DNA of 63,766 nucleotides, counting the filler, from Stramenopiles sp. TOSAG23-6 (Eukaryota): assembly GCA_900128565.1 (NCBI GenBank). It is 13 parts of 13 records of this genome, joined end to end, with 100 filler letters (N's around TTAATTAATTAA, not from the genome) between each part and the next. Parts side by side here need not be neighbours in the genome. Positions count along the whole stretch, not along the records: positions 1 to 4,840 come from LT637043.1; positions 4,941 to 9,779 come from LT637044.1; positions 9,880 to 14,706 come from LT637045.1; positions 14,807 to 19,633 come from LT637046.1; positions 19,734 to 24,555 come from LT637047.1; positions 24,656 to 29,468 come from LT637049.1; positions 29,569 to 34,377 come from LT637050.1; positions 34,478 to 39,286 come from LT637051.1; 5 more parts are not named here. One strand, 5' to 3'. The notes under the pieces were generated by a model that was not told the origin of the DNA, did not search any database, and was given only the letters and a program-made list of their open reading frames with translations. Both the position numbers and the translations under genes were made by a program. Shown piece after piece: positions 3,579 to 56,817 of this stretch; position 1 is the stretch's first letter; every line of letters begins with the position of its first letter.

Positions 3579-3681
3579 ATATATTGTGAAAAAGTATTTT
3601 TGTAGTAAAAAAATCGTTAAGTACGAAATTTTCTATCAAAAAATAACAAAGTAGGTAAAAAATTCAATTTTGAAAACGTAC
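3579..3681 (-). mobile_element. Introner-like intron GT..AT (103 nt)
   Basis: AT|GTACGTTTTC...CACAATATAT on minus strand. Confidence 0.75.
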
Positions 3682-3749
3682 ATACCCAGTAAGCATTCGG
3701 TAAATTAGAACTCCAAAAGCCCACCAGTCCAATGGTCTCGCACTCCAAC
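3682..3749 (-). CDS. Protein-kinase subdomain IX micro-exon
   Basis: Translates WSARPLDWWAFGVLIYRMLTGY between two family introns. Confidence 0.7.
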
Positions 3750-3847
3750 ATATATTGTGAAAAATATTTTTTTTTAATAAAAAATTGTTAGCTGTACAAT
3801 TTTCTACCAAAAAAAAAAAAATGTAAAAATGTAGGATGAAAACGTAT
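3750..3847 (-). mobile_element. Introner-like intron AT..AT (98 nt)
   Basis: AT|ATACGTTTTC...GCTAAC...CACAATATAT. Confidence 0.7.
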
Positions 3848-4628
3848 ATTGTTTTGGTAACAATTTATGATTATTCACAAATGTTGCTTTCGATTGGCGA
3901 TCAAAACAAACGTATATCTTTCCACCATTATCATTTATATCTGATGTAGTAGCCTCTTTCCGATGTCCAGTAGCTGTCCGAACAATCCAATGTCGTGCAA
4001 ACCGATCCCTTGAAATTACCTCCAAAATAAATTGTAAACTACCATTTAACCTTAGCGAGTAACGCCAAGTCGTTGCAAAACGTTTTGTTTCAATCTCTTC
4101 ACATTCTATTATTATATATGTATTTAAAACTCTAAACTCGGCCCTATCCTTATACTCACAGGAATATTTCTTGTGGAAGACGGGGTTTCGTGCATCTCCG
4201 TCTAAAGTTACTAAAAGTTGACCTGTGCTGATATCATGAGAAAGTTTTAACTCGTGTTTTGTATCAGAATGATTCACAAATATTGGAAATAAAAGACCAA
4301 TGATACGGAAACGTAATGGTGAAAGTAAACTATTCACGTCTTCGTGTATTTGCTTGGCTGTCTCGTCAAGTGTCGCACCTACAAATCGATAGCCAATACC
4401 TTTGTCTGAGACATTTTTTAGATTTGCGTTGGTTTTTCGAATTTTGTTTCCTGTAGTATTTATACTCTTTAATTTACTTTGAAAAGATGATTCTAATGAT
4501 CCAATGGAACCAGTTTGAGGCAGATTGGGTGTTTCAGTATTCGTAACTTTTTTTGTATTCATAGATAGAGTTTCACTGAGATCGGTCTGCAGTAACTCTA
4601 AAAGAATTTCATGTGGTTTACTCGACAT
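3848..4628 (-). CDS. Unknown protein, first exon
   Basis: ATG at 4628, ORF runs into family intron at 3847. Confidence 0.55.
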
Positions 4629-4840
4629 GACTCTTCGAAAGTTAGTCGACTATAAAAAGATTCCTTATATTGCAAATTTGTAAACTTTTATGAAAATATC
4701 AGCATCACGTTCAATATATATACATCTTCTCGACACATGTTGGCCTCGTGATATAACAAAAGAATCACACAAATGAAGATTATTTCGATATACTATACCA
4801 TATTAAACTTACAATATATAGTAGTCAAAACAAAACGGAG

Positions 4841-4940
4841 NNNNNNNNNNNNNNNNNNNNNNNNNNNNNNNNNNNNNNNNNNNNTTAATTAATTAANNNN
4901 NNNNNNNNNNNNNNNNNNNNNNNNNNNNNNNNNNNNNNNN
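4841..4940. other. Artificial contig spacer (first of 12)
   Basis: N44-TTAATTAATTAA-N44, also at 9780, 14707, 19634, 24556, 29469, 34378, 39287, 44192, 49095, 53994, 58881. Confidence 0.97.
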
Positions 4941-4986
4941 CAAATTTAAGTTTTTTTTTTTTTTGAAATATTTTTCCAAAATACAT

Positions 4987-5379
4987 AGCAAAATTTGGAA
5001 TTTCCTTCGAAAATTTTCTTTACCCTATCATGTACGTTTTCATCATTTATTTCATTTTGTTTTTATAAAAATTTTGTACCTAACATTTTTTTTTTTAAAT
5101 ATTTTTTCAAGATACATGAGATGTATGATAGAGGATATACATCTCTTGGTAATGTAAAAAATACAAGTCCAAATCCAGCCCTTGTATGTTTTATATGAAT
5201 TTCTAATTTAATTTATTTTTTTTTTGAAATATTTTTTCACAATACTTTTAAGGAGTAGAAACAAAATAAGTGTTGGTACACTAGAAGGCTCAGATCCAGA
5301 TTATTTGCCTGCATATTTTTTACCTCAGGAAGACCATGGATTGGAAAGGTCAGGTAGGAAATCAAAAAGTAATAAATAA
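4987..5379 (+). CDS. FAD1: FAD synthase (PAPS-reductase family), last 3 exons 4987-5031, 5118-5183, 5248-5379
   Basis: Spliced: IWNFLRKFSLPYH|EMYDRGYTSLGNVKNTSPNPAL|LRS...YLPAYFL...LERSGR, the FAD1 C-terminal motifs. Confidence 0.85.
5032..5117 (+). mobile_element. Introner-like intron GT..AT (86 nt)
   Basis: Removal restores LPYH|EMYDRGYTSLG. Confidence 0.85.
5184..5247 (+). mobile_element. Short introner-like intron GT..TT (64 nt)
   Basis: TT|GTATGTTTT...CACAATACTT; removal restores frame to FAD1 C-terminus. Confidence 0.7.
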
Positions 5380-5613: not shown

Positions 5614-8600
5614 ATGACAATGCCTCATCAGAAGGCATACATCAATCATAATTCTAATTCTTTTAACTCACAAGAATCTACTTCAGCAAAGAATAATCGG
5701 AAGCTGACTTTATATCGTCGCAAAGTGATTTCGTGTACAACAAAGTCAAATTCTCCTTTCAACTTTATTTATGACAAGACATTCACTCCTGGAAATGATT
5801 TTTTTCAATTACTTTGCGTGCCACCAAATAGTGCGAAAGAATCGATAAAGCCATTAAAAATTTGGATTCCAGATACATTAGTGTATCACCAAACAAGTGA
5901 TGACTCTGGGAATTTAGATGTTGAACCAACTTGGTATTATACCGATAGAAATGGGAACTTACTTTGTACGCATCAGTTTAATCAAGATAATGTACAACGA
6001 AAAATTGGAAATCAAAATCATCCAAGTGTTGGTGTTGCATTTATTAAAACAACAAAAACAATGCGCTGTGGTGCCGCAGTGTCATACGAGGGTAATACAT
6101 TAAAACTGGTCAATACAAAGGAATTAGGAGAATTTCACTCAAAGTCGAAAAACCAAAGTAATAATATCGGCGAAACGTGCGCAGTACAACGCTTCATACT
6201 CAGCAAAAGTAAGTATGCATCAATCACTAGATGTACTTGGGAAAAGGACAAATGTACAATAGCGCATATTATTACTAATAATGAATCTCGTTTAAATGGC
6301 AGCCCTAACCCTACTTACAAGGGAAAAATAGAAACCAAAAATTATCAACGCTTCTGTACACAATTACAAACTGATTTTTCGTGTACTGTGCAAAAAGTCA
6401 GTGGTGTTGTTGTAAAAGTTATGGACAAAATTCTTAAAAATATTGTGCTTTTTATTCGAAATGTTCATAAAATATTTCTGACAAAAATAGTTGCAGATTT
6501 TATATTTGATCATGAACGAACTCCCTGGCTTCTCGAAGTGAAAGCATTCCAAATTCAAAGCAGCACTTTACAAAAGCCTATACTTCTTGCAATGCGGGAA
6601 CGTGAAGGAAATACTCAGATTGGAAAGATTCATTTAGTTACAGCAAAAAAATCGTTTGTATCACAAAATGGAAAAATATATCCGGTTGAGGTAAAACCCT
6701 TTAAAGGAAATGTTCATACGAATAGACCCCGATCCAATATAGAAGGAAAATTAACAAGACGGTGTGGTCTCTGTGGGCAAAGATTACGCATAAATAAGTT
6801 AAAGTATTCACTAACACTGCAAATGATAAACTCAATAAAACGTCATATTATTGGTAGGAAAGAATCTTCTGTTATTGAAATGCCATGGTTGTACGTTTTC
6901 ATCATGAATTTGAAATTTTGCTTTTTTTCATACGAAATTTTGTATCTAACTTTTTTTTTGAAAGATTTTTTCACAATACATGTTACCAAACTGGGGAAAA
7001 TTAGGCCCAAATAGTCACGGAGTTGGTATTATCAAGAATGGTAAATCGAATGGTTTAGCTGGGCGAGCAGGTAGATTTAAAAGTAGTTCTAGTAAGGATA
7101 AATATAGTACAAATTATCAACTTTCTAATGAATACAGACATTGGCCAATCTGTGAAATGTGTAATGAACTTTATCACTCGGAATCAAGTCTNTCAAGCAT
7201 CGAGAAGATATATTCTTTAAAAACTGGGTTAGTTGTAATGGATAATAATGAAACAACAGATGGAGTTGGGAATACATACGATGAAAAACAGATTGAAAAA
7301 CTACATACTTCTAGAGATGATATTAACTATATACCAATGATGGCAAATCATCGTCTTCCTAGTTTAACAATTTGTCGATTTATGATTGCTTTTCATTCTT
7401 TACTTTTTCCACCCAAAAGACTTTATGCTTATGCTGATGCATTGTATAAAAAATACAATGAAAACATTCCCAGCTGGATGAAGCCAAGACTCGAATGTAC
7501 ATTTCTAGGTAGTACGACATCGGTTGCCATCCCAATTTCAATGCAAGACATGTCAAAAGAGTATAATAAGACAAAAAATAAAACATTTGGTTCAGTTCAT
7601 CGTGAGCGTACACCGACGATTAAATTAAATCGTCTTCAAATTCGTGAATTTTTGGTTTCGGGGACACCTTTCACAAATACTCCAGACACTGTAATACCCT
7701 CTGAAACAAACAATATTGCAGCAAGAAATTGCAAAGGCGGTGGACTTGAAAAGTTTCTTTTAAATCAAAAGTTATTACATGTTGAACTATGGATTCCATC
7801 TGTAGGTGAATTAGACAATGATGTGCAATACGCTGGTAAAAATATTCAACCTTCTGCACATGAAATAGTATGGGAGCAGTGTGGTACTGCTGATTTTCGA
7901 TTATCGGCATTTACTAATCCTTATCTTACTGAACAGCAACAGTTTTGTCCCATTCGATTATCAGAGTCTACTTTATCTCAACATGTAAGATATAAAAAAG
8001 ATAAACATGATGAAAACAAAATCAAATCTGGCGGCGAAAAAATAGACAGCGAAAGAAAAAAACAAAAAGAACCACTTCTATATGCAACATTGGGACTTGA
8101 AAGAATGCGAGTGTTGCCGAAAGAATACTTAGATACTGATGGACTTGTATGTCGTGTGAAATCCATAGATGAAGTATGTGGTGGTGCTGGGGTATATTTA
8201 CCTGCCAAGGGTGTCCATATGACTTCTACGTCTCCTTTACCGGAAAAGTGGATGAATATTCTCACTGGTAAAGCATCGCATACTTCATCAAATACATTTG
8301 CATTTAATCCGGGGTCACAAAAAAAACAGAAAAATGTACAAAAGAAAGAAGTGGGTTCTCAAGTTAAGAAAGAATGGAAAGAATCTATTTGGTGTCTACA
8401 AATTAACTTTAACTCTGCTAACAATTTACACTGTCTATTTCCTTNTAAAGTTGCATCAGACTCTGATAAGATAGACGCAGNTAATTCAACCTCCAACGGG
8501 AAGAATGATTCACCGAATATTTCACAGTCTGGTGGACAAATAGCATTTTCATTTTCATTATTTGGAAATCACTGTGAAACTGAACTGTTGAAATTTCAAG

Positions 8601-9689: not shown

Positions 9690-9779
9690 ATGTATTTTGG
9701 AAAAATATTTCAAAAAAAAANGGTNGGNAACAAANTTNGTACGAAAATAAATTCGAAATTGAAAAAAAATAAAACATAC
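9690..9779 (-). mobile_element. Introner-like intron GT..AT (90 nt)
   Basis: Matches family consensus, some Ns. Confidence 0.75.
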
Positions 9780-9895
9780 NNNNNNNNNNNNNNNNNNNNN
9801 NNNNNNNNNNNNNNNNNNNNNNNTTAATTAATTAANNNNNNNNNNNNNNNNNNNNNNNNNNNNNNNNNNNNNNNNNNNNGATGAAGAAAACGTAC

Positions 9896-11183: not shown

Positions 11184-14100
11184 TTAAAATTTCATTATTT
11201 TTTCCTTCTTCATTCTACCATCTATCCCAAGAACCATACGTCGTTCTTGACTATCTGCTGATCCTGGTCTATTTCGAGAAGTTCTAAGTACAGGAAGTTC
11301 TGTTTCTTTTTCAAATTCTCCGGAGAGTAGTTTTTTTCTAAAGTCATCAACGATAGGAACATTAGCAGCCTCCAGTTCTCTTTGTAATCGCGCCAGTCGC
11401 ATTGCTTTCTCTCTTTGCATGGTCTTTTTCCAATATGCTTTTGTTTTCAAAGCTTTGCGGCGTGCATTATCACGCTGTTTTTTAAAGTTTGCTAGCGCTT
11501 TTTGCTTTGGTGTAAGTTCGTCAGTTGAAACTACGTCGGCACCAGAAACTAATCTCGGCTGCATTTTTATTAAGTCTATTTTAGCTTTTTGTAAAAGTTT
11601 TGATACACTTTTACTTTTTGCTAATTCATATGCATATCTATTTCGATTATTTTTTGTATTTAACATACGGAATAATCCTAAAATACGGAATTTTTTAAGC
11701 TTCCATGTATTTTGGAAAAATATTTCAAAATTGTTTTTGTTAGGTACAAAATTTCGTACGAAAAACAAATTGAAACTTGAAAAAAAATAAAACATACATT
11801 CGCCCTTACTGCACTCATATATTGTAGGAGCCGTCAAAGCCGTACACGTAGACAAGTGATTACGACGCGCGGCCCAGTGAAGTGCCGTATCACCATTCCC
11901 ATCTTGAATATCCATATCAGCTCCGTGATATATTAAATAATTTACAATGTCAGTACTTCCTGCTCTAGCAGCAACATGAAGTGGTGTCATTGCAGTTAAA
12001 ATATCAGTTTCTCTATTTGTATCTGCATTTTTCTTCTCAACTAAGTATTTAACAAGATTCAAGTGACCAGCCCAGCAAGCATTATGTAACAATAAATCAC
12101 CTGTATCAGACTCAGGATCATTCACTGAAAATATCCGATGTTCTTGATGCTTCTGACGTTTCGTTTCATCTTCTATAAGCTCCCCCAGTCTTTTTGTGGA
12201 GACTCCAACACGTGCACCAGTCCAAGGATTATGTACAGATGCATCTACTTGATTTTGATGTTCAATAGCTGAAATTTCTGCCATTTTTTTTTCTAATTCT
12301 TTACGGGCAGCATTCTCAACATTGCGTTTTTCAATACCTTTTCTCCACCATACATGACATAACTGAATGAATTTTCTGTGATTGCTTTCAATACGATGTT
12401 GAGATAATTTAGCTTTTGCAAAATGCCTCTGATTGAGCTCTTCAGAACGCATTTTAATACAATTTCGTTCCTCCTCTTCTCGCTCTTTTGCATTTCTAAT
12501 AAGCCTTTCAGAATGATTTGCAGCATTAATGGCTCCTTGGGTCAATTGTAAACATTCGTTAACTCTCGGATGAAAAGAAAAAAACGCCCGCTTTGCTGAT
12601 TTGATACCTTTAGAAAAGTCCAAAGGTGTTTCATCATCTCTATCATAATCGTCAGAATTTACATTAGCACAATATAACATACTAGCCTCAGCTTTTTCCA
12701 CTGACTTTTTAAAGCGATCTATTTGGCCAACTTGTTGTAAAGGTTTCGAAACCTTGTACCGAAATATATCTCGCGACATCAAGGCAGTCAAATCTGCCCA
12801 TCCTTGATATAACCTACGTACATCTGCTTCTAATGCAATGATAGGTAACTGACTGGCATCTAACATTGCTTCTTCCACTAAATTGCGATAATTTTCAGTA
12901 ACATCTGACACACGTTTTTCGAATAAGTTCAATTTGTTTTTCATTTCTTCTTTTCCACCACAATAAGCTTCGTCGGATTCAACTTCTGCTTTCAAAGATA
13001 CAACTTTAGCAAGTTTTTTCTGTGCTTTTTTCATTAGTTTCTTTGTAGCGCGGATCGCCTTCCAGACTTTGACAAACTTTTCTAATCCTGTGATACCTTC
13101 AAACTTGTCTAACGTAAATTGAACACGCTCAACACTATGAGATAACCCTTCAGTCTCTTGATTCAAAGTTTTAGAAAGTTTCTTAAGCTCTGCTTTCATT
13201 TGATCCTTTGCTTTTTTTCTTGAAGCTGCTTCTTCTCTCGCTTGTTTTTGACGCCATGCACACTGAGTCTTCAATGCAGCATCTTTTTGACGCTGAATGA
13301 CGTCACCAACATCCTCTAGAAAATACTCGAATGCAACTTTATCTTTATGTTCAGGATGTTTGTATCTACGAGCAACTAGCGTAACGTCTTTTTTATCCAA
13401 TCGAAATGAATATTTCTTTTTGACAAGAAAATAAAAACTTTGTTGGTTCAAATAATCATTATTTTCATCATCAAGTTGACGAAATGCACGAGCGAATGCA
13501 TCATAAATTCCTCTATTTTTTACTTGATCAACAATTGACCACATTATTCGGTCCAACTTTTCTTCCTCTGCCATTGAAAATGCTTGGCCAGAAGGATTTG
13601 AAAAACCAAGTGTGTCTCTCTTCTTCTTTGCTTTGGCAGCTTTTTCTGCTTCTTCTTTTTGTATTGCTTGTTGTTTCTTGATGTCAGTTTTATGCTGGTT
13701 TTCATATATTTTTCGAATATCTTGAACAAATAAATGGTAGTCAACGGCATTATGCTTTTGAGAATGGTGGTAACGACGGACAACTAACTTCATATTAGGT
13801 TCTATTATTCGTAATCGAAACTTGACTTGAAATATTGACATGAAAGATTTTGCATCTAAATAATGCCTATAGTTGATATCTGCATCTCCAAATGCCTGAA
13901 GAAATTCTTCTGTTGTACCATGGTGTTTCAATTGGGCAACTATATGCCACAGTGTTGCGTCTAAATCTTCTTCTTCTTCAAGCGTAAATTTATCACCAGA
14001 ACTATTTGAAAAACCAAAATGTTGTGACTTTTTCCGCCGCGCAGCAGCTGCTTCGTCTGCTTGTTGTTTTTGTATTCTTAGTTGTTTCAATTTCGCTGAT

Positions 14101-14982: not shown

Positions 14983-15013
14983 AAAATTTGCTATGAAATT
15001 TCATCAAAATCTG

Positions 15014-19560: not shown

Positions 19561-19816
19561 ATGTATTGGGAAAAATATATATTTTTTTTTTTACCGAAAA
19601 TAAAAAAAAAATTGTTAGGTACGAAATTTTCTANNNNNNNNNNNNNNNNNNNNNNNNNNNNNNNNNNNNNNNNNNNNTTAATTAATTAANNNNNNNNNNN
19701 NNNNNNNNNNNNNNNNNNNNNNNNNNNNNNNNNTTGAAAAAAAAATCTAAAAAAATTTGTTAGGTACAAAATTTCGTACGAAAAAAAATTCAAATTTTCA
19801 AAAAAATAAGACATAC

Positions 19817-20575
19817 ATCTAGTTCACCTAACAACTCGTCCTCATCAAAACCTTCTCCCATTTGCCGACCTAGAGCTTCATTAATTTCATTTTGCATTTC
19901 CATGCCCTCTTCAAGTTCTGCCTGTAAGTCCTCTACTGCGTCAACATCCATGTATTTTGGAAAAATATTTGAAAAAAAAAACCGTTAGGTACAAAATTTC
20001 GTACGAAAAAAAAATCGAATTTGAAAAAAAATAAAACATCCATATTTGCGCTAATAGCCTGTTGAGCCCTTCTGCTTTCTTTCATCGCACCAACCACAAC
20101 CATATTTGAAGAAGCTTGTTGAAGGTTCATGACCTGGGATTCCAAATTCATAATTTGGTTGTATAGACTCGTTACCTGTTTTTCGTACATTTTTTTCTTT
20201 TTTAGATGTTGTAAAGCGCGCCGTTTATCCTTCTTTTTCATGCAAGCCTTAGCTTTAGCAACTTCACCGTCCATCTTCTTCTCCAAAAATTCAGTTCTAC
20301 ATATATAAGAAAATAACAAAAGATAAAACTATTAGATTTTAAATCCACCAATGAAATAATAAAGAAACATAAATGACACAATCAATAATACTATAAATAA
20401 AAAGTCAAAAAGTAAACCGAGAAGAATGTAGAAGATTCAAAAGAGAATGTATGACTTACCGCTTCTCTAAAGATACTTTAGACTTCTCAATATCAGAAAT
20501 AGCTTTCATTGTACCACCTGCAGTACTTACAGGTGCACGCTGTGGTGCCTGTTTTTTTCCACCCCCATTTCCCAT
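19817..20575 (-). CDS. SNF7: ESCRT-III Snf7/Vps32; exons 20575-20460, 20296-20042, 19949-19817 (3' truncated)
   Basis: KRRALQHLKKKKMYEKQ...NMDVDAVEDLQ...NEINEALG...FDEDELLGELD. Confidence 0.85.
19950..20041 (-). mobile_element. Introner-like intron GG..AT (92 nt)
   Basis: Removal restores MDVDAVEDL; 9-nt direct repeat ATGGATGTT at the junctions. Confidence 0.85.
20297..20459 (-). other. Canonical GT-AG intron (163 nt)
   Basis: CG|GTAAGT...TATGTAG|A; restores KR|TEFLEKK; no family motifs. Confidence 0.85.
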
Positions 20576-24472: not shown

Positions 24473-24818
24473 ATACATTGTAAAAAAAATATTTTTTTAG
24501 TTTTTTTTTTTTGTTAGGTACAAAATTTCGTATTAAAAAAAAATTATTTGAAAAANNNNNNNNNNNNNNNNNNNNNNNNNNNNNNNNNNNNNNNNNNNNT
24601 TAATTAATTAANNNNNNNNNNNNNNNNNNNNNNNNNNNNNNNNNNNNNNNNNNNNAACCTAACCTTTTACCCTAACCCTAACAACAAAACTAATGTAGTA
24701 TTTCGTGTTTTTATGGCAACTTCCGGGAACTTACGAATTCAAACAAAATATTATTATTATTATCGAAATTGAAAATTAAGAAACTTCACATCGATATTCT
24801 CACCCAATTACTTCGACT

Positions 24819-26975: not shown

Positions 26976-27008
<33 letters not shown>

Positions 27009-34176: not shown

Positions 34177-34206
34177 GCTACACACGAAAAAGTACACCCC
34201 TGGAGG

Positions 34207-35904: not shown

Positions 35905-35929
35905 GAATGTTTTATTTTTTATTTTTTTT

Positions 35930-35975
<46 letters not shown>

Positions 35976-35983
35976 ATTTTTCC

Positions 35984-36017
<34 letters not shown>

Positions 36018-36031
36018 GTTCCACAATATAT

Positions 36032-36598: not shown

Positions 36599-36693
36599 GT
36601 ATGTTTTATTTTTTTTTTAACAAAAAAATCGAATTTTTTTTTTATAAAAATTTTGTACCTAACGTTTTTTTCAAATATTTTTCCAAAATACAT

Positions 36694-39239: not shown

Positions 39240-39987
39240 GTGTGTTTTATTTTTTTTTTTTTTTTTTACAAAAAAATCGAATTTTTNNNNNNNNNNNNNN
39301 NNNNNNNNNNNNNNNNNNNNNNNNNNNNNNTTAATTAATTAANNNNNNNNNNNNNNNNNNNNNNNNNNNNNNNNNNNNNNNNNNNNCCAATTGTACCAAC
39401 CTGCCCAAGAATAATCCTATATTGTGAAGGGAAAAAAAAAATTGAAAATAAATAATCTGGATAAAATTGTCAACCCAAAAAAAAATGTAAAAAAGAAATG
39501 TAAAAAAAACAAAANAAAAAAAAAAAAATGTAAAAAAAAAATGTAAAAAAATCAAATGTAAAAAAAAAATGTAAAAAAATTGTACAATTGTTTTGTTAGG
39601 TACAAAATTTCGTATGAAAAAAAAAATGAAAAAAACGTACATCCTTCAAGGGAGTCTTTTTTTGTAGTACATTTTTTGCATTTTTTGCATTTTTTACATT
39701 GTTATTACAAAAATTTGCAATTTTTCGTTTTGCCAACATTCGTAATAAAATAATGAAATGTTGAAAAATATTTTAANCTTTGAAAGTACAAGTAAGTTTT
39801 CAAGAAAAACAAAAACACAAATTTAAAAAAAAAAAAAAATTAAATTGTTAGGTACACCTTTTCGTATGAAAAAAAAAAAATTCAATTTAAAAATTTAAAA
39901 AAAAAAAATTAAATTTTAAATTGTTAGGTACAACTTTTCGTATGNAAAAAAAAAANAAANTTTNAAATGAATGATGAAAAAACTCAC

Positions 39988-40400
39988 ATTGTATCTAAAG
40001 AAAAAATTGACTCCAAATTTGTCATTCGTTCCAATTCTTTATGACTTAATTTCTTGAAATATTGTGTTTGAAGCAGTTTTGTCGGTGTAGTATTATCTTG
40101 TACCATTTTTTCATACTTGAACTCATTATTTTCATCTATATCGTTTGGTATTTTTGGTATTTTTGATACAACATCGTTAGGGTTAGGGTTTTCTGTAGGA
40201 CAATTATCTACTTGATCTAATGCTTTAATAGCATGTATTGTGAAAAATATTTTTTTTTTTTGATTTTTTTTGTTAGGTACAAAATTTCGTACGAAAAAAA
40301 ATTAAATTCAAAATTGAAAAAAAATAAAACGTATATCTTCCCTAGACACTTTAGCATTTGCCATTACGGCTTCGATTTCTTTGTTACTATGCTTAGTTTC
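39988..40400 (-). CDS. Exons with UBA/NAC-alpha-like motif (40400-40335, 40232-39988)
   Basis: KEIEAVMANAKVSRED|AIKALD across AT..AT intron 40233-40334. Confidence 0.6.
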
Positions 40401-40511
40401 ATGCATTTTGGAAAAATATTTCAAAAAAAAAAAAATCTAAATTTTTTTGTTTGGTACAAAATTTCATACGAAACCAAAAAAAAAAAAAAATGATAAAAAT
40501 TGAAAACGTAC

Positions 40512-40774: not shown

Positions 40775-40812
<38 letters not shown>

Positions 40813-41870: not shown

Positions 41871-42557
41871 GACACAAAAAGTATAGAAATAATAATGACT
41901 ATTAAAATATGCTTGTATTCCTATTTATAGCTCACGAAAAAATATACTCAATCTAACAACATATTGGGAGTACAATGATGCAAAATATATTTAACATATA
42001 CATTTCCCCCAATAACGACGTATAATACATAAGTTATACTTCTATTTTTTGTTTCTGGTTTGTTGAATAATCACACGCACTCACTTCCCTCACTTCACTT
42101 CGACTTCTTTGTACGTTTTTTTAACAGAACACGAAATCGAAATCCCAAATTCCCAATGAACAGAAAAAAAAGCATTTTTAAATTATGAATACTACAACAT
42201 TAATTATGTAACAACAAATCTAAATCTCAGAAAGCATAGAAATATATATTGAACACTACTCGCCTTACTACAGAACATGCTTGAAAGCAGAATAATATGT
42301 ATTTGACGTTTAAAAAAAGTAGCCGACACAGTTTTCGAATTTAAATTTGATTTTCGAAATTGTTTTGGAGAAATTTCAAAGAAGTTTGCATAAAAACCCG
42401 TAGTTTGGTTAGTCAATCAATTTGTTGCACACTCATAAATATGCAAATTCCTAGGATAATGCTTTTGTTAAGAAGGCATTCGGTAGAGTATTCATAGACC
42501 ATGTAAGAAAAAAGGACAAACTATAATCTATAATTAAGTCTATAATATAAGTAGTAG

Positions 42558-42592
<35 letters not shown>

Positions 42593-42691
42593 TTTTTTTT
42601 TTTTTTGAAATTTTTTTTTTTTGTTAGGTACAAATTTTCCTAAAAAAAAAAAAAAAAAATATTTTCAAAAAAAATAATGAAAAAAACGTAC

Positions 42692-44157
42692 ACACTTATA
42701 TCCAATAATTGAGTATGAATTCTACACGAAAAACCATGTTTTTCTTTTTCTTCATGTTTTGACTTGTTTTGACAAAAACCAGAATCTTCTTGTACATGGT
42801 TAGGGTTAGGGTTTTTATTCTGTATTATATTTTGACTTTTGTATGAAATTACATTTTTTTTTTCTCTACCAAATTTCGTACCGAATGAATTTCGAATTTG
42901 TTGATTAGGGTTAGGGTTATCTTTTGATTCGGAAGAACTCGAAACGTCTTCAGATTCTTCTGCGGTAGCAAACTCTCCATCAGATGATGAAGTAGATGAT
43001 ACACTATTTATGTTTGGCGGAAAATTGGATGATGACAAAATATTTTCATTTTTTTCAAAATTTTCAAAATTTTTTACATTTTTTGAATTTTCAAAATTTT
43101 CAAAATTATCTATTTTTTTTATTTTTGGCCAGAGAAATCGTTTTATATCAAACCAGGCATCTGCATTCCATTCAAAATGTATTTGTTATACGTAGTCAAA
43201 AAATATTTATACAGTTTCATTTTTTTTGGTTAGGTACGGAAAAAATATACAATTCAATTAAGAGTGGGAACACCTCTTACGTACAATATTTCGTACGAAA
43301 ACCAAAAAAAAAAAAATACATTTGAAATTAAAATTAAAATTAAAATTAAAAATAAAATTAAAAATGAATGTTAAAAACATACTCGCATCTATGTCTATAT
43401 TAGGAATATCATTTGATTCNGAATATGTAATTTTTATACATTTCTGTTTTGTTTTATCTACAGTATTTATAAATGTTTCTTGAGAAAAATCATTATTTGA
43501 AGAGTGTATTGAATGTATTGAATTTTGAGAAAAATCATTATTTGAAGAATGTATTGAATTTGATGAATTTTGAGAAAAATCATTATTTGAAGAATGTATT
43601 GAATTTGTTGAATGTTTTTTACATTGTATTAAATACTTGAAATCATTCATAGCTAAATTATTTTTTAATGAAATATTTGAAACCTCAAGCAATATATTCA
43701 ATTTTTTTGATGGATCTTTTCTACATTCAATTATTGTTTTTTTCAAATTCAAAGATATATTTACTTTTATATTCGATGTAGGGTTAGGGTTAGGGTGAAT
43801 ATCCGATAAAAATAAGATATCGATTGATTCTACACTTCCTCGTATTTTTGTTCCTATATGTAATGAAATACTATTTTTTGAATGTTTTAAATTTTTTGAA
43901 TTTTTTGAATTTTTTAAATTTTTTGAATCAAATTCAATATTTTGTCTTCTTGTTTGATTTGATGTTTTGATCCAATTTTGAAGAATTTGATACTCATTTT
44001 CATATAATTTCATACAAATCGTAGAAACACGAAATCCTACTTCAATGTCTGAAAGTGTACGCATTTTTTTTTGTATTGTTGATTTCACATTTAATTGTAA
44101 TGAAAAAGGCTGAACAAATGATGGTATACTACTATCTCTCTTTTCCTCAAATCCTAT
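42692..44157 (-). CDS. Multi-exon fragment, possibly VPS13-like
   Basis: FVQPFSLQLNV, beta-rich alternation, IHFEWN; bounded by family introns. Confidence 0.4.
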
Positions 44158-49194: not shown

Positions 49195-50452
49195 TAGTGA
49201 TTTAGATCATAGTGATGATATTTTTTCAAATACAAATAGTGATTTAGATAATAATGATGATATTATTTCAAATACAAATAGTGATTTAGATCATAATGAT
49301 GATATTATTTCAAATAAGAGTTGTTATGAAGAGGAAATTGCAGATCAAACTTGTCACAAAAAACATAAAAAACAATCTGAAGTCAATGAAATTGTTCCTG
49401 AACAAATGTCAACGTCACCAAAACCTCCCCACACACCATGTATGTTTTATTTTTTTTCAAATTCTAATTTTTTGTTTCGTACGAAATTTGATACCTAACA
49501 AAAAACTTTTTTTTTTTTGAAATTCTAATTTTTTTTCGTACGAAATTTTGTACCTAACAAAAAACTTTTTTTTTTTTTAAATATTTTTCCGAAATACATG
49601 CCCTGCTTATGCTGAAATGCAAATACCTGCTCTCCAGTATGCAATGGCAAATTATGGAATGAGAAAAGCTTCAAAGAAAGTAATGGTACAAAAACTAACT
49701 GAGTTTTGGCACTTTTTGAGAAAGGATAAACTCATTCAAAAGACTAAAGAAAAAAAAAAAAGAAAGAAAAAGAAGAAGACTAATTTGATTTGTCGACAGA
49801 ATTGTAATGTAGTTGCTCTTCCTGTACCTGATGAAAATGGTCATATAGATGCGGTACTTGCACCTGTACGTTTTCAGTATGAATTTCAAATTTTTTTTTC
49901 GTACGAAATTTCGTACCTAACAAATTTCGAATTTAATTTTTTTTACAATACATGTACTTGATGACAATTTGCTTCCCAATAGTGCCAATTGTATGGTACC
50001 AAATTTTGTACCTAAAGCGAACGAAATGTTCTTTGTGCAACATTCTCCTTCGGACAACCCTAACCCTAGTCTTTCTCTTGGAATTCAATCTGTATCGAAT
50101 GGTAAAAAATATAGTAAAAATCACGAAACATTGATAAATCTTATTCGAAACAATAACAGTCCAAAGATGGCTACATTACATGTATGTTTTATTTTTTTTC
50201 AATTTCAAATTTATTTATTTTTTTTTATAAAAATTTTGTACCTAACGATTTTTTTTTTTTTTTTTGAAATATTTTTCCAAAATACATGAAAAAATGATTC
50301 TTCTGGACGCTGTAAATGTCAATGATGTGTATGATGCTTTTCAGAGAGCGGCAAAACGAAGCAATAAAGTAGAATGTGGAGATATCACTAAAAATCTTAT
50401 TGTAGAATTTCTTGAGGCGCAAAACATTACCATGGAAAACAATGTTAAATAA
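49195..50452 (+). CDS. SLX4: SLX4-like nuclease scaffold, C-terminal exons (introns 49440-49599, 49866-49953, 50182-50287)
   Basis: TP|CPAYAEMQIPALQYAMANYGMR (SAP-like) and LH|EKMILL...LIVEFLEAQNIT (SLX1-binding-like). Confidence 0.7.
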
Positions 50453-50682: not shown

Positions 50683-53600
50683 ATGTCATACAAGTTCGAA
50701 AGACTTTCAGAAAAAACGCATCATTTCTTTCGTGGTAGTGCTGTTCTATCAGCTCTAAATGGATATGTTGACTTCCCGGGACAGGAATCAGACTCAGAAA
50801 TGTCTCGGGTTGTTAGCTCCACAACAGAAACTATACTGGTAGCTATGGCGGCAGCTCCTGGTCATATCGTTTGCTGTTTTAAGTTGAAAGACATAGGTAC
50901 TTTATTGGTATCTCTTGATGCTGTCCTTCCACATGAATTGATGGATGATGACTTATTGAAAGGTCTTTTGGCGTTAGTTTTAAATACTACAAAAACGTCG
51001 CCTCTTTTATCTTTTCCATCATCTGAAATTCGACCCAAGATTTTATTATCTCTCCATCGGAAGGAAATCGTTACTATAAAGTATATTCCAGGTAATATCC
51101 TTCGATTAATAGCAGTGTATAGAAATGGGGAAATGTACGTTTGGGAATGGGACGGAAATCATTCGAAATGGGTGTATTTAAATTGCGTTATTTTAGGCAA
51201 TATCGATAGTGTAATTGAAGTAATAGAATGTGTTTTCTGTGAGTGTAATAATACAATTGTTTGGCAAGAGAAACATTTAAATATGACATGTCGCACATGT
51301 ATGCGTACAATTCACTTTAGCTGCGAATCAATGGTAATGAATGATTCAAAAAGTGATTCAAAAAGAAATGTCAAACCAAAACTATGCCAAAACAATATTT
51401 TGAAAAGAACTTTGATTTACATTGGTCAACTATCTGTGATTTCAACAACAAAAGTAGACCAAATTTTTGTTTCAAAAATAGGCATTTGGACATTTGATTC
51501 ATCAGCTATACATAAAACAAACTCAACAAAGTCTTCGACAGCATTTTCTGATTCAATTGAGTCAACCTCATCAACTCAAATAAAATTATATTTATGGAAA
51601 TTTTCATCACAGGTGCAGGTACCTTTTGTGTATAACTCACCAAATGATCAAAATAATCAATTGCGTCGTATTGCTGGTACAGTTCATACTACATCTGGAA
51701 TTATTTTTATTCTGTGTTGTGCAACAGGCGTATGTTTTCAAAATTGAATTTTTATCTACATTTTTTTTATACGAAATTCTGTACCTAACGGTTTTTTTTT
51801 TTTAGTAAAAAAAAAAAAAAAAAAATTAAAAATTTCACAATACATATTGTATACATAAGAAATTCCAATACTAGCCGTAACTCTACAAGAACCCTAACCC
51901 TAAAACCATTATGTACATTATATCCATATGATATAAATAGTGAAAATATAAATGATTCTATTTCAATACAAGCAAAAAGAACATTTTTATATGTTCTCAC
52001 AAAGCGTAAAGTTATTGTACATGTATGTTTTATTTTTTTGAATTTCGAATTTATTTTTTTTTTTTTTTGGTAAAAAAATTAAAATTTTGTACCTAACGAT
52101 TTTTTTTACTAAAAACACAAAATTAAAAATTTCACATTTTTTTTGTACTACAAAAGGATTTTCTTTTAGTATGAAAATTCCGTACATAACAATTTTTTTT
52201 TACTGAAAACAAATTCACAGCATATGATTTAATTAGTGGGTTACAAATGGCAGAGATTGTGATAAACGCAAACTACTCAGGTACAAAATTTGGTACAAAT
52301 TATGATAGTAAGAATATTTTTGACAGTGACATTTTATATAAAAAAAATTTTTGGACTGAAGCAACACCTGGGGTAGGGTTAGGGTTGTGGGATTATTCGG
52401 GGATGTGGTCCTTGAAGCATCCTAGTGTAGCAAATGAAGCCGCTATGTATGTTTTCATCTCTTTTGTTTTTGTTTTTACCTACGAATATTGTATACAAAA
52501 AAAAATTTCATGTAAATTTTTTTTTTTTACTATGAAAATTGTATACCTAAAACAAATTTCAAATATTTGAAATATTTTTTTATTTGATTTTTTTTTTTAT
52601 AAAAATTTTGTACCTAACAAATTTTGACATTTTTTTTTTTTTGACAACACAGACTCACAGCATCAGTAGAACAATTTGGTTTAGACTCGATATTTCATTC
52701 AAAGACTTTATTATCACGGAATTGGATGTATGTTTCATTTTTTTTCAAATTCGATTTTTTTTTCGTACGAAATTTTGTACCTAACGATTTGTTTTTGAAA
52801 TATTTTTCCAAAATACATGTCCGGAGAAAATTCAAAATTTATTTCTTCTAAAATGATTCCGTGCAATTTTTTTACAAAATATTTCTCAAGTAATGACACG
52901 TGTACGTTTTTCATTTTAACCTTTACATTTCATTTTTTTTTTTTTTGGTTTTAGTACGAAATTTACAATGAAAAAAAAAAAAATTATACAAAAATATATA
53001 TATATTTCACAATATATTTGTTCAGCGAAATTTTATTACACGAATGTTTAAACAATTTCTAAAATATCGCAATTTTTTTGATGATAATAGTGTTGAATGT
53101 TTACTAACATCTATGAATATTATATTACGTCATTTGCAATCTCCTGCAATGTTGCTTGCACTTCTACCAACGAGCCACGTACGTTTTAACCATTAATTTC
53201 AAAAAACAATTTCATACGAAATTTTGTACCTAAGAAAAAAACATTTTTTTTAAAGTAGTTATGTTTTCATCATTTATTTCAAATGTGTAAAGTAACATAA
53301 AAACAATCAAATTTGGTATATTTTGTACAATATATATTCATAAAAGTTTTGTATCAGAAATTTTAGATTCTTTCACATCTGATATCAAGGAGAGAGTTGA
53401 CACTCAGCAAATTCGAAATTCGTTAGGTACAAATTTTGGTACAAAAAAAAAAAAAAAAAAAATGAAGGAATTGTTTTTACTCAAATCATTGACTCCACTT
53501 GCATTACAATTAAAACCTCGACTACACGAAATGCTCAATATTTCAAAAAAATTATCGATTCATCGAAAATCTCATATAGTCGTAAAGAAGAGAGTTGATT

Positions 53601-53858
53601 TGACTGAGGAAATTCGAAATTCGTTAGGTACAAATTTTGGTACAAAAAAAAAAAAAAAAAAAAAATGTAAAGGAATCGAATACAGTTTCAGTTGTACGTA
53701 AAACAATGACACAAAAAGATGAAAGACGAAATATATCAATACTGAACAATACTTTTGGAAAATTACTCAAACAAAATTTATTTACTGAAAATAAGAAAAA
53801 GATAACATGGCTTGAATTTCATTTTCTTACATTTGCACCAACATGGGATACATTGTAT
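50683..53858 (+). CDS. Unknown intron-rich gene (introns 51730-51845, 52023-52225, 52447-52652, 52728-52818, 52902-53017, 53179-53335, 53859-)
   Basis: Successive exons join in one frame when family introns are removed; frame uncertain across poly-A runs. Confidence 0.6.
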
Positions 53859-54154
53859 GTATGTTTTTATCATGAATTTTTAAATATTTTTTTTCATACA
53901 AAATTTTGTACCTAACCAAAAAAAAAAAAAATCAAAAAAAAAAAAATTATATTTTTTCATAAAAAATTTTGTACCTAAAAAAAAATATTTTAANNNNNNN
54001 NNNNNNNNNNNNNNNNNNNNNNNNNNNNNNNNNNNNNTTAATTAATTAANNNNNNNNNNNNNNNNNNNNNNNNNNNNNNNNNNNNNNNNNNNNATTTCAA
54101 AATTAGTACAAAAAAAAAAAAAAAAAGTTTTGCTTAGGTACAAAATTTCGTACG

Positions 54155-54186
<32 letters not shown>

Positions 54187-54233
54187 TTGGGAAAAAAATT
54201 TCGAACAAAAAAAAAAAAAAAAAAAAAACATAC

Positions 54234-54669
54234 ACGAACCAAGACTGATTTTAGAAAAGAAAACGTCTTTGATGGGAAATCCTGGTGCATTGGCTTTCAA
54301 CTTTGGCTCCACACTTCGTCGCACCATTAGTTCTATTGCATCATTTAAATGAGGCCAAATGCTTTTGATGGTATTATTCAACCAATCTAATTTCTCTACG
54401 TCAGGATTACGCACCCATTTTGGATAGGTTGTAATATTATCCTTTGAAGCTTGTCGTGATTTGATAATAGCGTGATAATCTACAATATTCAGTGCACTTA
54501 TAAGAGGACTCCATTCCATTATTAATTGACCTCCAAAGAACCAAAACAGTATCGGAGGTAATAAATATAAGAGTGGAAGGTTATAGACACCAACTCCATA
54601 TAGCAACGTTGCTGATACACANGTTATCAACACGAAAAGACATCGTGCTGGTAGTAAACCTAAACCCAT
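54234..54669 (-). CDS. Synaptotagmin-like SMP-domain protein, first exon
   Basis: TM then YPKWVRNPDVEKLDWLNNTIKSIWP...ISLG. Confidence 0.8.
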
Positions 54670-55138
54670 TTTGATTAAATATTATACAATTAGCACCAGC
54701 TCATATACGCTACTGAAGTANAGATGTATGGTTAGTAGTATTTCACTTGCTCTACTCTAAACCCTTTGAACGAAAAATCCAATATTAAAATAATATCTAT
54801 ATTGTATACAGCTACCTCTTTGAGAGAGGAGAAGAAAAACGACGACGGTTGTTTTTTTAGCTGGCTGAGCAGGTTTGTGATTTGTGATTTTATTATAGAT
54901 ACTTTCAGTTTACCGTCTAGCATTTGTATCTCTCTCTCTCTCCAGTCTCCACTCCACTACAACAAGCCCAAAAAACACACCAGTAAAATTCGGTGTTTTA
55001 ATCAATAGCCAAAGAGAGGTAAAAAAAGGACACTTTAAGTTCTCATTGTAAGAGTAGTAATACTCACTACACGTGTAGTGTAAAANACGATATANTACGA
55101 AAAGAGTACAATACACAACTACAAAACACACAGATATA

Positions 55139-56817
55139 ATGTCACGACGAGCAAAGGGTACTGCATTGACTGTACGAAATAACAGAACACCAGCTCGTAA
55201 AGCTGTTGTTCCAGCGAGAAAAGTTGCAGCTTTTGTAGACAAATTATATAAAATATTAGAGACGGCTTCTCCAGATATCATTCGTTGGACGAATGGNGGC
55301 TCAGCTTTTGAAGTCAACGATACCGACAGACTTTCAAAGGAAGTATTATCTGTGTATTATCGAAGCGGAAATTTCCAAAGTTTTATTCGCCAACTACATT
55401 TTTATATGTTTCGACGTATTGAAGATACAAAGAAAAAACAAACGAAAAAGACACATTGGGAATTCACACATGAATATTTTATTCGAGGTCGTCCCCATTT
55501 AATGTCAAAAATACAGAGAAAGACAAATGTATGTTTTATTTTTTTTTTTAAACCGAAAAAAAAAAAAATCCAATTTTTTTTTCGTAGGAAATTTTGTACC
55601 TAACAAATGTTTTAGAATTTTTTTCAAATATTTTTCCAAAATGCATGGTGACCTACAAACGAAAGCTGAGGTCAATGTTCTCAAGGAAGAAGTAGCAATG
55701 CTGCGTCATACCATGACCAATTTATATTCCAAGATGAACCAAATGTCACAGGTAATGCTTGCTCTTGTAAATGAAAGACCAGATTTACACTCAACAATTA
55801 AAAACATGTATGTTTTTTTTTTTTCGGTAAAAAAAAAATCGAATTTTTTTTTTTTTTGGTTTCGTACGAAATTTTGTACCTAACAAGTTTTTTTTTAGAT
55901 TTTTTTGAAATATTGTTCCAAAATACATAATTTTAAGTCGAAGTCCACAAAGTACTGGACAGTCACCAAATTTGAACCAAATCTCTTCGTCAATGGTTCC
56001 CTCCATGGCTACTCCTCTACCCATGCCTATAATACCAGTCAATACGAATAACATCAACACATTTTCCAGCGATTTTTCTACTGATTCAAAAAAAAGAAAA
56101 TTAGGTCAAAGTACAACTGAGAAAAATAGTGATGATTTTTTACAGTTTAATTTTCCTCATGGAACAAGTACACAGCCACATATTAATTCAAACACAATAC
56201 CCAAAAATTCTCTTTCTCCAAATGAGGATGAAACATTTGCCATTGAATATTTAGGTGATTTGGAACGTGTACCATCACCAGATTACACTTTAATTTCTAC
56301 CGATCGGAATAATGCGAATAGCCCTAACCCTAGTGGTTCTAATGGGAATGGGGTCAATACTAGTACTATGGACCCATCATGGAAGAAGTTTCCTGGTGAT
56401 GGTAATATTACAAGTTCATATGGACGTAGAAGGCATATTCCTAATTCATCACTAGATTTAACAAATGAAAAGAATGATTTTATAACNAACAATAATAACA
56501 ATCATGGTAGTGANAATTTAGAAATGCCGAAATTTGATAGATTAGCTTCNTATGACAAAATTCCATATAGTGAGTTNAATAGATTATCAAGTATAAATAG
56601 TATTGGTAGTATAGATTTGACTGATTTAGGTATGGCCATTGATGACGCCGATAACCCTAATAGTAATAATCGTAATAACCCTAACCCTACAAATAAAAAA
56701 AATCAATTTGGGGCACAAAAAAATGACGATGATATTTTAAATGTTTTAACCGATTCTCTATGGGATACACAAGACTGGGATGCTAATTTAAAACCAAAGG
56801 AGAATAATGATTTATAG
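55139..56817 (+). CDS. HSF: Heat shock transcription factor; exons 55139-55528, 55647-55807, 55929-56817
   Basis: FVDKLYKIL, IIRW, NFQSFIRQLHFYMF, WEFTHEYFIRGRP; two GT..AT introns restore frame. Confidence 0.88.

Follow-up and report, generated by a model that had tools for sequence, protein, structure and literature searches.

The AG that closes an intron is among the most constant signals of eukaryotic genes, and it is assumed by gene finders, splice-aware aligners and introner surveys. Introns with other ends have been described. In mammals, isolated conserved GT-AT introns occur, of U2 type in DGCR2 and of U12 type in DEADC1 and SLC24A6, and the available text of the same report states that U12 splicing tolerates AT-AN and GT-AT termini (PMC1557818). 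The non-canonical introns of Fritillaria borealis are associated, according to the accessible portion of the source, with a conserved U2-type spliceosome (PMC13326754). Among the described introner families, signs of target-site duplication and terminal inverted repeats are not universal (PMC9860276, in its available sections), and a survey from 2025, as far as its accessible text goes, admitted no 3' sites other than AG and AC and left out unfamiliar families for which RNA support was lacking (PMC12130899). Here we examined a stretch of 63,766 bases from Stramenopiles sp. TOSAG23-6 (GCA_900128565.1; hereafter the window), composed of 13 contigs of 4,786-4,840 nt in order of length, separated by linkers of N44-TTAATTAATTAA-N44, in which a single family of short repeated elements is found within many unrelated genes.

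These elements are probably introner-like spliceosomal introns with GT-AT termini, carried by a MAST-3-like (MAST, marine stramenopile) host. That a sense-oriented, introner-like family uses an AT acceptor had been proposed in a preliminary description of this DNA; restoration of reading frames, a Pfam domain joined across one copy and a homologue that lacks another now speak for it, and the proposal is partly supported overall. A literature search, with most subscription journals outside its reach, found no description of a GT-AT introner-like family. In the accessible text of the single-cell genome papers on MAST-3 and MAST-4, introns are mentioned only in methods or as genome fractions.

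One element family in unrelated genes

Three rounds of nhmmer seeded with copy 6891-6981 returned 51 matches at E<=1e-4, six of them on a duplicate contig, and the envelopes span 4,314 of the 62,458 non-N bases (6.9%). It was noted that the 13-mer GTACGTTTTCATC, with up to two mismatches, occurs 22 times where 2.07 occurrences are expected, the highest shuffle giving 6. The curated set comprises 33 complete copies on unique contigs, with lengths of ~90-200 bases, and ten partial copies at contig ends or N gaps, as expected where an assembly breaks in a high-copy repeat (Table 1). Copies were found in genes for FAD synthase, Snf7, HSF, ankyrin, R3H/SH3, biotin carboxylase, HECT and other proteins. 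Every copy with flanking reading frames is in sense orientation, and in 16 of 16 copies with strong flanks the open reading frames (ORFs) lie on the strand of the element. The preliminary description had counted 31 complete, sense-oriented copies in unrelated genes and many partial ones at contig ends, and had suggested a profile model with a copy count; the model was run on the window, and both observations hold.

The copies have a common layout of a GTAYGTTTT start, a conserved TACCTAAC box and a T-rich tail. Two types were distinguished, type A starting with GTACGTTTTCATC and ending with TTCACAATACAT and type B starting with GTATGTTTTATTTTTTTT and ending with TTCCAAAATACAT; the core that holds the TACCTAAC box is common to both, and the 5' end of one type is combined with the 3' end of the other in some copies. 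Median pairwise identity was 0.76 within B (n = 10), 0.68 within A (n = 7) and 0.69 between A and B. In an alignment of 20 copies, a majority of at least 90% was reached in the first 9 bases, in the core ending with CTAAC and in the last ~22 bases, and the regions between these three blocks are looser, with many changes in the length of T runs. Across the 28 best copies, A at +3, G at +5 and T at +6 to +8 are invariant, with G at +1 in 26 and T at +2 in 25. At the 3' end of these copies, A is found at -2 in 27 and T at -1 in 26, a row for copy 9779 that was one base short having been corrected. A CTAAC-like box is present in 28 of the 33 copies; it is followed by T runs and lies 31-57 nt from the 3' end in short copies. 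The conserved 5' and 3' blocks stop where the ORFs resume, and the similarity between copies reaches the putative intron boundaries and goes no further.

A 22-mer of the family had no match in genome-contig or viral-contig collections. The 64 metagenome loci that matched a core 17-mer were set aside as chance matches, since nhmmer with the family model matched only one of them, weakly (L015, 28 nt, E=3.5e-4).

Core-like sequence was also observed inside exons. One stretch at 49987-50018 (+), GGTACC AAATTTT GTACCTAAA, is read as VPNFVPK and may be the remnant of a copy absorbed into coding sequence. At 53400-53660 (+), two antisense core fragments, each followed by A20-22, lie in a tandem repeat of ~200 nt and are read through in the frame of the gene as ...IRNSLGTNFGTKKKKKK, the frame shifting after the second A run. 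These fragments may be exonised antisense copies, small introns or homopolymer error.

Termini and restoration of reading frames

We determined the termini of the 33 complete copies as GT-AT in 24, GT-AG in three (38155, 39640, 52447), GA-AT in two (27340, 35905), AT-AT in two (3847, 40334), GG-AT in one (20041) and GT-TT in one (5184). The 3' end is AT in 29 of the 33 and AG in three, in agreement with the first count of 27 of 31 and two; in copies 26925, 42691, 52023 and 3681, reading frame or weak homology guided the placement of this end. An AT closes the preceding exon in 22 of 32 cases, and the following exon opens with G in 18 of 28.

For the frame test, frames were taken from the flanks alone, with at least 50 open codons upstream and at least 40 downstream (from 30 nt inside the exon) and with each flank at least twice as long as the next-best frame. 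Sixteen copies qualified, and exact removal of GT..AT joined the frames in 15 of them (binomial p=7.7e-7 vs 1/3), or in 14 of 15 when copy 52023, the end of which had been chosen by frame, was left out. The lengths of the copies occupy all three classes modulo 3. Copies 5032, 5184, 40511 and 52728 missed the automatic test only through a short next exon; inspection, and homology where it could be applied, places them in frame. The claim that exact removal mends frameshifts is borne out by these counts. The family as first pictured keeps its GT-AT majority and proves less uniform, with five copies lacking GT, one frame failure and three to five usable AG acceptors.

Homology across the junctions was then considered. 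In the Snf7 gene, Pfam Snf7 positions 16-101 lie in the exon upstream of copy 20041 and positions 102-147 in the downstream exon. A homologue of the ankyrin-repeat gene with copy 11797 (P0122; 825 aa, aligned over 822 residues at 42% identity) lacks one stretch of 31 residues, precisely those that reading through the copy would add, and the GE on its upstream side and the W on its downstream side are both conserved. Flanked by copies 5032 and 5184, a 22-residue exon aligns from its first residues on with residues 434-454 of human FAD synthase as well as residues 218-239 of a yeast FMN adenylyltransferase, and the third FAD synthase exon had no PDB match. The biotin carboxylase exon after copy 35905 opens the Biotin_carb_C profile at position 6 with AEDP, and the HSF DNA-binding domain (profile 1-100) finishes two residues ahead of copy 55529. 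Among the motifs earlier said to be restored by removal, those of Snf7, HSF and FAD synthase were verified, and the SLX4-like one was not, Pfam giving none in exons 49602-50449. Word-based protein searches for spliced orthologues with the Snf7 exon and the R3H segment returned no matches.

AG dinucleotides near the ends of the copies

We assessed AG dinucleotides from -12 to +45 of the end in 31 copies, and no in-frame AG was found in 11 of them (31459, 35905, 49440, 49866, 50182, 51730, 52902, 53179, 40334, 20041 and 26925). Copy 5184 has three AGs 5-11 nt downstream, all out of frame, and the frame is kept at the position homologous to the usual end. Between the CTAAC-like box and the inferred end, an AG is present, and hence passed over, in 12 of the 28 box-bearing copies. 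Copies 6891, 38155, 51730, 55529, 55808 and 34195 have an internal AG 10-17 nt from the putative branch A, the use of which would leave a frame-breaking tail. Because internal AGs are passed over in this way and their use would break the frame, the AG that first follows the branch is not the acceptor. Use of the first AG downstream was likewise rejected, nearby AGs being out of frame or missing in 11 of the copies examined, and this AG is out of frame at 6891, 31459 and 55529 as previously reported.

Some drift towards AG was noted, in that three copies have G as the last base and copies 5032 and 35146 have gained an in-frame AAG. The latter two, of type A (5111-5117) and type B (35269-35275) respectively, carry the same change of CAAAATACAT to CAAGATACAT, by which the AAG arises 6 nt ahead of the AT end. 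This change is possibly a step towards a canonical acceptor.

RNA, metagenome and structure data

RNA evidence was drawn from assembled run contigs (Logan) at low cover, placed on the contig at 49195-53993 only. Words sampled from this contig were present at 0.93 and 0.92 in the small DNA runs X1 and X2, at 0.26 in the seawater DNA run X3 and at 0.05-0.11 in three metatranscriptomes. In runs X4, X5, X10 and X3, unique exon pieces were covered by contigs with 0-3 differences, and the organism or a close relative is therefore present in them. A contig of X3 (53752-53906) spans an exon-element border. One contig of poly(A) RNA (X10 record 8, 266 nt) aligns with 53677-53859 and then continues with 72 letters that were not placed on the copy; this departure at the first base of the copy hints at the pattern of a spliced mRNA, the next exon lying beyond the window. 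Loose-end consensus sequences in other runs repeat the borders of other copies (CAT then GTACG; ATACAT then GG), and since the same borders occur there, the AT end does not stem from an error of this assembly. The joints listed in the run contigs connect different repeat copies and are uninformative on splicing. Stretches without cover carry no weight as evidence, and the depths sum over contigs and organisms.

Six copies were folded with their flanks, giving z = 0.20, 0.02, 0.99, -1.65, -0.21 and -2.77. A terminal helix of the 5' junction with the 3' end was predicted in the minimum-energy folds of 31459 and 50182, which are B-type. In these models the helix is compatible with the complementarity of AU/GUAU and AUACAU/ (slashes marking exon-intron borders) and is no evidence for a structure-driven mechanism. 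A core hairpin, GTACGA/TTGTAC, was rejected as a maintained structure, its 5' arm varying without compensation except in copy 6891.

Alternative explanations

Several observations weigh against spliceosomal GT-AT introns. No contig of X4, X5, X10 or X3 bridges a copy exon-to-exon on 49195-53993, so that the metatranscriptome check suggested at the outset yielded one poly(A) contig leaving the genome at 53859 and none across a copy. RNA contigs were found to run from exon into copy in X4 (53744-53896) and X5 (49303-49457), and these may be pre-mRNA or DNA carry-over and are also expected from retention. Removing GT..AT from copy 36599 does not join the frames; copies 31459 and 11797, each of 93 nt, are open in frame, and frame alone allows for retention there. 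The five of 33 copies that lack GT (GA twice, GG once, AT twice) are odd for a U2-type donor. Rfam gave no family in the window, where no small nuclear RNA was seen to account for AT tolerance. No major spliceosome is known to use U routinely at the last intron position.

The alternative that survives best, although unlikely, keeps the same introns and moves their boundaries two bases to the left, which would make most of them U2-type AT-AC introns (ATGTAYG...ATAC) that take their GT..AT look from flanking AT. In its favour, AT closes the upstream exon in 22 of 32 cases and for every tabulated B-type copy except the atypical 5184, and none of the five copies without GT lacks the upstream AT, three of them (20041, 27340, 40334) then reading AT-AC, a further point against GT-AT. 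An A at +1 with a C at -1 is a workable intron base pair. Where the exon ends in AT, removal of GT..AT and of AT..AC yields identical mRNA, and the decision falls to the ten copies without upstream AT and to the invariant +3A, +5G and +6T. The five that could be evaluated (6891, 49866, 51730, 52902, 53179) are all in frame as GT..AT, their sole common register, and in eight or more copies the AC has given way to GC, AT, GA or GT with the final AT kept. The donor would moreover be ATGTAT with A at +5, whereas the GT register has +3A, +5G and +6T in 28 of 28, and copies 35905 and 3847 fit neither GT-AT nor AT-AC. AT-AC was rejected as a general reading, with the upstream AT missing in 10 of 32 and the AC replaced as above. 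We prefer GT-AT because the copies without an AT exon end fit it, the final AT outlasts the AC and the invariant +3A/+5G/+6T suit GTAYGT; the two registers may also be used together.

A divergent minor (U12-type) spliceosome could in principle handle the family, since such machinery tolerates RT-AN termini and has undergone massive expansion in at least one protist, and we give this explanation little credence. The termini found here (GT-AT, GT-AG, AT-AT and possibly AT-AC) coincide with those that U12-type introns are reported to have in the available text of PMC1557818. In Physarum, GT-AT and AT-AT make up 17% and 8% of the non-canonical introns, most of them U12-type, according to the accessible part of bioRxiv 10.1101/2020.10.12.336362. 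The 5' end GTATGTTTT, with G or A at +1, is one base off the Physarum consensus RTATCTTT. Against this, the base at +5 is always G (28 of 28), whereas the described U12 donors (RTATCCTT or RTATCTTT) all have C there. In the short copies, the sole branch-like box lies 31-57 nt from the 3' end versus 9-12 nt in Physarum, as given in the available text, and a TCCTTAAC-like motif nearer the 3' end was not found when the 3' block was inspected by eye. GTAYGT together with CTAAC is the classic major-type pair.

Removal without a spliceosome, by RNA excision with pairing ends as in euglenids and diplonemids or by somatic DNA elimination similar to ciliate internal eliminated sequences (IESs), is about as improbable. 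The 3' ATACAT is the reverse complement of the 5' junction AT/GTAT and is extended by TTTT and AAAA runs, 31459 and 50182 fold with the terminal helix, and short direct repeats (AT, CAT, TACAT; 9 nt at 20041) overlap the borders as in Amoebophrya and euglenids in the accessible accounts. However, the folds were no better than shuffles in four of six copies (z 0.99 to -0.21), type A lacks the terminal helix, and the direct repeats are equally frequent between introns and within them. The GT, +3A, +5G, CTAAC box and T tract conserved here are missing from those classes as portrayed in the available text. The ORFs are in the standard code, DNA contigs of X3 cross exon-element borders and no DNA joint without a copy was listed. 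IESs of the ciliate type were rejected on their borders, which here are AT/GT and AT/G and not TA, on the standard code and on best protein matches to stramenopiles.

Least probable is that the copies are retained as recent gene-disrupting insertions, translated through, or assembled artefactually from a single cell: copies 31459, 11797 and 36599 are open in the exon frame, RNA-library contigs cross exon-element borders and contigs break at copies where local misassembly is possible, but 14 of 15 copies have exactly the frame-restoring length class, some of them with lengths that are no multiple of 3, copies sit exactly at the breaks in the conserved Snf7, FAD synthase and biotin-carboxylase domains, the same border motifs recur in independent metagenome and metatranscriptome runs, and sense orientation is universal. 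Translational bypassing, with the direct repeats as take-off and landing codons, was rejected, as the repeats are at chance level and the elements bear splice signals.

Spread of the family and a possible mechanism

Matches of exon end with intron end, and of intron start with next exon, are as frequent between introns as within them (at -3, 9 observed versus 9.1 expected). Since flank matches within introns equal the between-intron level at every position, no variable target-site duplication is detectable. The inverted repeat is confined to ATGTAT/ATACAT, ~6 nt. The preferred phase is 0 (17 of 27), which places an NAT codon ahead of the intron. The exon context NAT/G is constant, and its AT would be either a target that does not vary or a piece of the element itself; transposition into such an AT target and reverse splicing at AT/G sites would both fit. 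The universal sense orientation inside genes could reflect selection.

If the copies are GT-AT introns, one sequence family would have multiplied into many unrelated genes, always in sense, each copy supplying its own strong 5' splice site (GTAYGT), branch-like box (TACCTAAC), T-rich tract and conserved 3' block. Excision from the pre-mRNA would run precisely from G at +1 to the terminal AT, with YAT/ in place of YAG/ as the acceptor, and what sets the acceptor would be the conserved 3' block, or the spacing from the box, rather than the first AG. We infer that the U2-type (major) spliceosome removes the copies and that the last intron base is U at the RNA junction. Judging from 58 kb, AT-acceptor introns would be the dominant class of the lineage, with altered recognition of the 3' splice site.

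The second splicing step involves an interaction of the first and last intron bases (G-G, or A-C), and in spliceosome structures the 3' AG pairs with the 5' G and the branch A. In Trichomonas and Giardia, the branch and acceptor motifs are fused. A more specific proposal, which we hold to be rather doubtful, is that the major spliceosome routinely joins exons after a terminal U (GU...AU) and finds the acceptor through the 3' block of the intron in place of AG. The last six bases, AUACAU, are complementary to the 5' junction AU/GUAU and could act as a guide like the exon-binding sites of group II introns, such that the intron would hold the 5' exon end beside its own 3' end. If true, guide pairing would account for one mobile intron colonising many NAT/G sites and for internal AGs being ignored.

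Were nearly every intron in these 58 kb to end in AT, the gene models of abundant uncultured ocean grazers would be systematically broken, as the only public model compared (P0001), with its probably spurious 27-nt GT-AG mini-intron, suggests. Annotation-based screens for mobile introns would be blind to such families. The organism would also offer a natural system in which the second splicing step takes U for G at scale, and would bear on 3' site choice and on the drift of the spliceosome when a mobile intron floods a genome.

The public model P0001 equals the mitochondrial-carrier ORF at 20699-21850 (+) minus nine conserved residues, FKAEGFRGL (21074-21103). This gap corresponds to a 27-nt GT..AG mini-intron, probably an annotation artefact of a GT-AG-only gene finder.

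The window, its host and other features

The GC content of 24-40% across the window is that of an AT-rich eukaryote, and stop-to-stop ORFs in the standard code reach up to 1,406 codons. Eukaryotic domains were identified as Ion_trans, ankyrin, TPR, R3H/SH3, FAIM1, Biotin_carb_C, HECT, CWC25, bZIP, Mito_carr, SNF2, TspO, Snf7, HSF and SMP. The mitochondrial-carrier ORF is identical to a EukProt coding sequence with a MAST-3-type label except for one 9-residue gap, and its further best matches are stramenopiles (oomycetes, an Incisomonas-labelled transcript and Cafeteria); on these matches the host was taken to be a MAST-3-like marine stramenopile. The contigs at 39387-44191 and 58981-63766 differ by 8 mismatches and 4 indels, all within the long intron 43177-43382 / 62771-62957, and are alleles or come from different cells, differing only inside one copy.

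An intron-less ORF of 653 codons at 44538-46496 (+) has Cir_N and CWC25 domains, the latter of a first-step splicing factor, and is the sole splicing factor in the window. The 68-nt micro-exon at 3682-3749 (-), between two copies, codes for WSARPLDWWAFGVLIYRMLTGY and aligns with Pkinase positions 176-193 below the cut-off (E=0.0076); the exons beside it have no kinase similarity, and the upstream ORF matches FAIM1.

A telomere-like motif, (CCCTAA)2-3, occurs 22 times where 0 are expected, at 15 unique sites (6303, 15248, 19388, 22161, 24670, 40178, 42801, 42906, 43779-43795, 50058, 50524-50540, 51892, 52374, 56322 and 56679) plus their twins on 58981-63766. Most lie within long ORFs with CCCTAA on the coding strand and an in-frame reading of NPNP or LTLT, and the site at 52374-52384 is the single antisense one. 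These sites look like in-frame insertions of interstitial telomere repeats in exons.

Table 1. Copies of the element family and the duplicated contig, in window coordinates. Copies are named by their 5' start, which is the lower coordinate on (+) and the higher on (-).
Feature	Coordinates	Strand	Description
copy 3681	3581..3681	(-)	complete, GT-AT; (AT)n 3' end, 101 or 107 nt both in frame and both AT
copy 3847	3750..3847	(-)	complete, ATACG start, TATAT end (AT-AT); then 68-nt kinase-like micro-exon
partial copy	4941..4986	(+)	3' part at contig start, ACAT end; FAD synthase exon next
copy 5032	5032..5117	(+)	complete, GT-AT; FAD synthase gene
copy 5184	5184..5247	(+)	short, without CTAAC box; in-frame end at homologous position is TT
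copy 6891	6891..6981	(+)	complete, GT-AT; exon end TT, AT-AC impossible; flanks open 459 + 59 codons
copy 9779	9690..9779	(-)	complete, GT-AT; at contig end
partial copy	9880..9895	(-)	5' stub at contig end
copy 11797	11705..11797	(-)	complete, 93 nt, in frame; ankyrin-repeat gene
partial copy	19561..19633	(-)	3' part at contig end, ACAT end; SNF2-like gene
partial copy	19734..19816	(-)	5' part at contig end; second intron of Snf7 gene
copy 20041	19950..20041	(-)	complete, GGATG start, ACAT end; Snf7 gene; 9-nt repeat ATGGATGTT at both borders
partial copy	24473..24555	(-)	3' part at contig end, GTAT end
copy 26925	26925..27022	(+)	degenerate A-rich 3' half; in-frame end GGAT; exon end AC
copy 27340	27340..27430	(+)	complete, GAATG start (GA-AT; AT-AC if shifted by 2)
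partial copy	29569..29649	(+)	3' part at contig start, ACAT end
copy 31459	31459..31551	(+)	complete, 93 nt, GT-AT; R3H/SH3 gene; no in-frame AG nearby
copy 34195	34078..34195	(-)	complete, GT-AT; flanks without ORF support
partial copy	34309..34377	(-)	3' part at contig end, ACAC end
copy 35146	35146..35275	(+)	complete, GT-AT; A-to-G change gives in-frame AAG 6 nt before end
copy 35657	35657..35757	(+)	complete, GT-AT, GAAT end
copy 35905	35905..36031	(+)	GAATG start, TATAT end; only GA-AT, AT-AT and similar registers; Biotin_carb_C exon next
copy 36599	36599..36693	(+)	complete, 95 nt; frame needs 93 (GT-AC) or 96 nt; one clear exception
copy 38155	38155..38263	(+)	complete, GT-AG at homologous position
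partial copy	38568..38681	(+)	3' part after N gap, ACAT end; HECT-domain exon next
copy 39640	39417..39640	(-)	long, ATAG end (GT-AG)
copy 40334	40233..40334	(-)	complete, ATACG start (AT-AT; AT-AC if shifted by 2)
copy 40511	40401..40511	(-)	complete, GT-AT, GCAT end
copy 42691	42501..42691	(-)	long; frame used to set 3' end
copy 43382	43177..43382	(-)	long, GT-AT; indels versus twin on duplicate contig
copy 49440	49440..49599	(+)	complete, GT-AT; core duplicated internally (two CTAAC boxes)
copy 49866	49866..49953	(+)	complete, GT-AT; exon end CT, AT-AC impossible
copy 50182	50182..50287	(+)	complete, GT-AT; zero AG from -12 to +45
copy 51730	51730..51845	(+)	complete, GT-AT, register unambiguous (exon end GC)
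copy 52023	52023..52225	(+)	long; in-frame end CATAT, 5 nt past out-of-frame CACAG
copy 52447	52447..52652	(+)	long, GT-AG, in frame
copy 52728	52728..52818	(+)	complete, GT-AT
copy 52902	52902..53017	(+)	GT-AT, TATAT end; exon end GT
copy 53179	53179..53335	(+)	GT-AT, TATAT end; exon end AC; register unambiguous
partial copy	53859..53993	(+)	5' part at contig end; poly(A)-RNA contig diverges at its first base
partial copy	54094..54233	(-)	5' part at contig start
copy 55529	55529..55646	(+)	complete, GT-AT, GCAT end; directly 3' of HSF DNA-binding domain
copy 55808	55808..55928	(+)	complete, GT-AT; second intron of HSF gene
duplicate contig	58981-63766	(-)	near-identical duplicate of 39387-44191; counted once
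twins of five copies on duplicate contig	59011-59234, 59827-59928, 59995-60105, 62095-62285, 62771-62957		

Comparison with known systems

The closest resemblance is to the introners of Micromonas, Aureococcus, dinoflagellates and other hosts, where, in the available text of the sources, one family likewise provides many introns in unrelated genes, copy boundaries are intron boundaries, and the elements are short and AT-rich in a marine protist host (PMC9860276, PMC12130899). The families described in the accessible parts of these reports have a GY donor and an AG acceptor, whereas the end here is AT in 29 of 33 copies (PMC9860276, PMC12130899). Unlike introners with signs of transposition, the present family has no variable target-site duplication and an inverted repeat of only ~6 nt.

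In Fritillaria borealis, too, most introns are not GT/AG and are attributed to mobile elements, and a 3' AT is common there (AG-AC, AG-AT), as reported in the available portion of PMC11282704. That larvacean, as so described, has an AG 5' end and diverse sites, whereas the stramenopile family keeps a strict GTAYGT and departs only in its acceptor. The expansion of introns of U12 type in Physarum polycephalum is similar in its massive gain, perhaps driven by transposons, in a T-rich extended donor and in the tolerance of GT-AT and AT-AT. It differs, in the accessible account, in its RTATCTTT donor, a branch 9-12 nt from the end and GT-AT as a minority, in contrast to the +5G, the box at least 31 nt away and GT-AT as the rule found here.

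The introners of Amoebophrya and the introns of euglenids and hemistasiid diplonemids are, as outlined in the available sources, likewise repeated and non-canonical, with inverted repeats and direct repeats at the borders. In those accounts they have no conserved dinucleotides, branch box or pyrimidine tract, and their ends pair extensively, whereas the present copies conserve GT, the CTAAC box and the T tract and end pairing in them reaches at most 6-10 bp. The isolated GT-AT introns of animals are single and rare in the available reports, unlike a mobile family to which nearly all introns of the region belong. With canonical U2-type GT-AG introns the copies share the GTAYGT donor, the branch-like box and the T tract, and the terminal AG is present in only 3 of 33. 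The combination of a strict major-type donor, a branch box and an AT acceptor within a mobile family sets these elements apart from every system compared here, as those systems are described in the accessible text.

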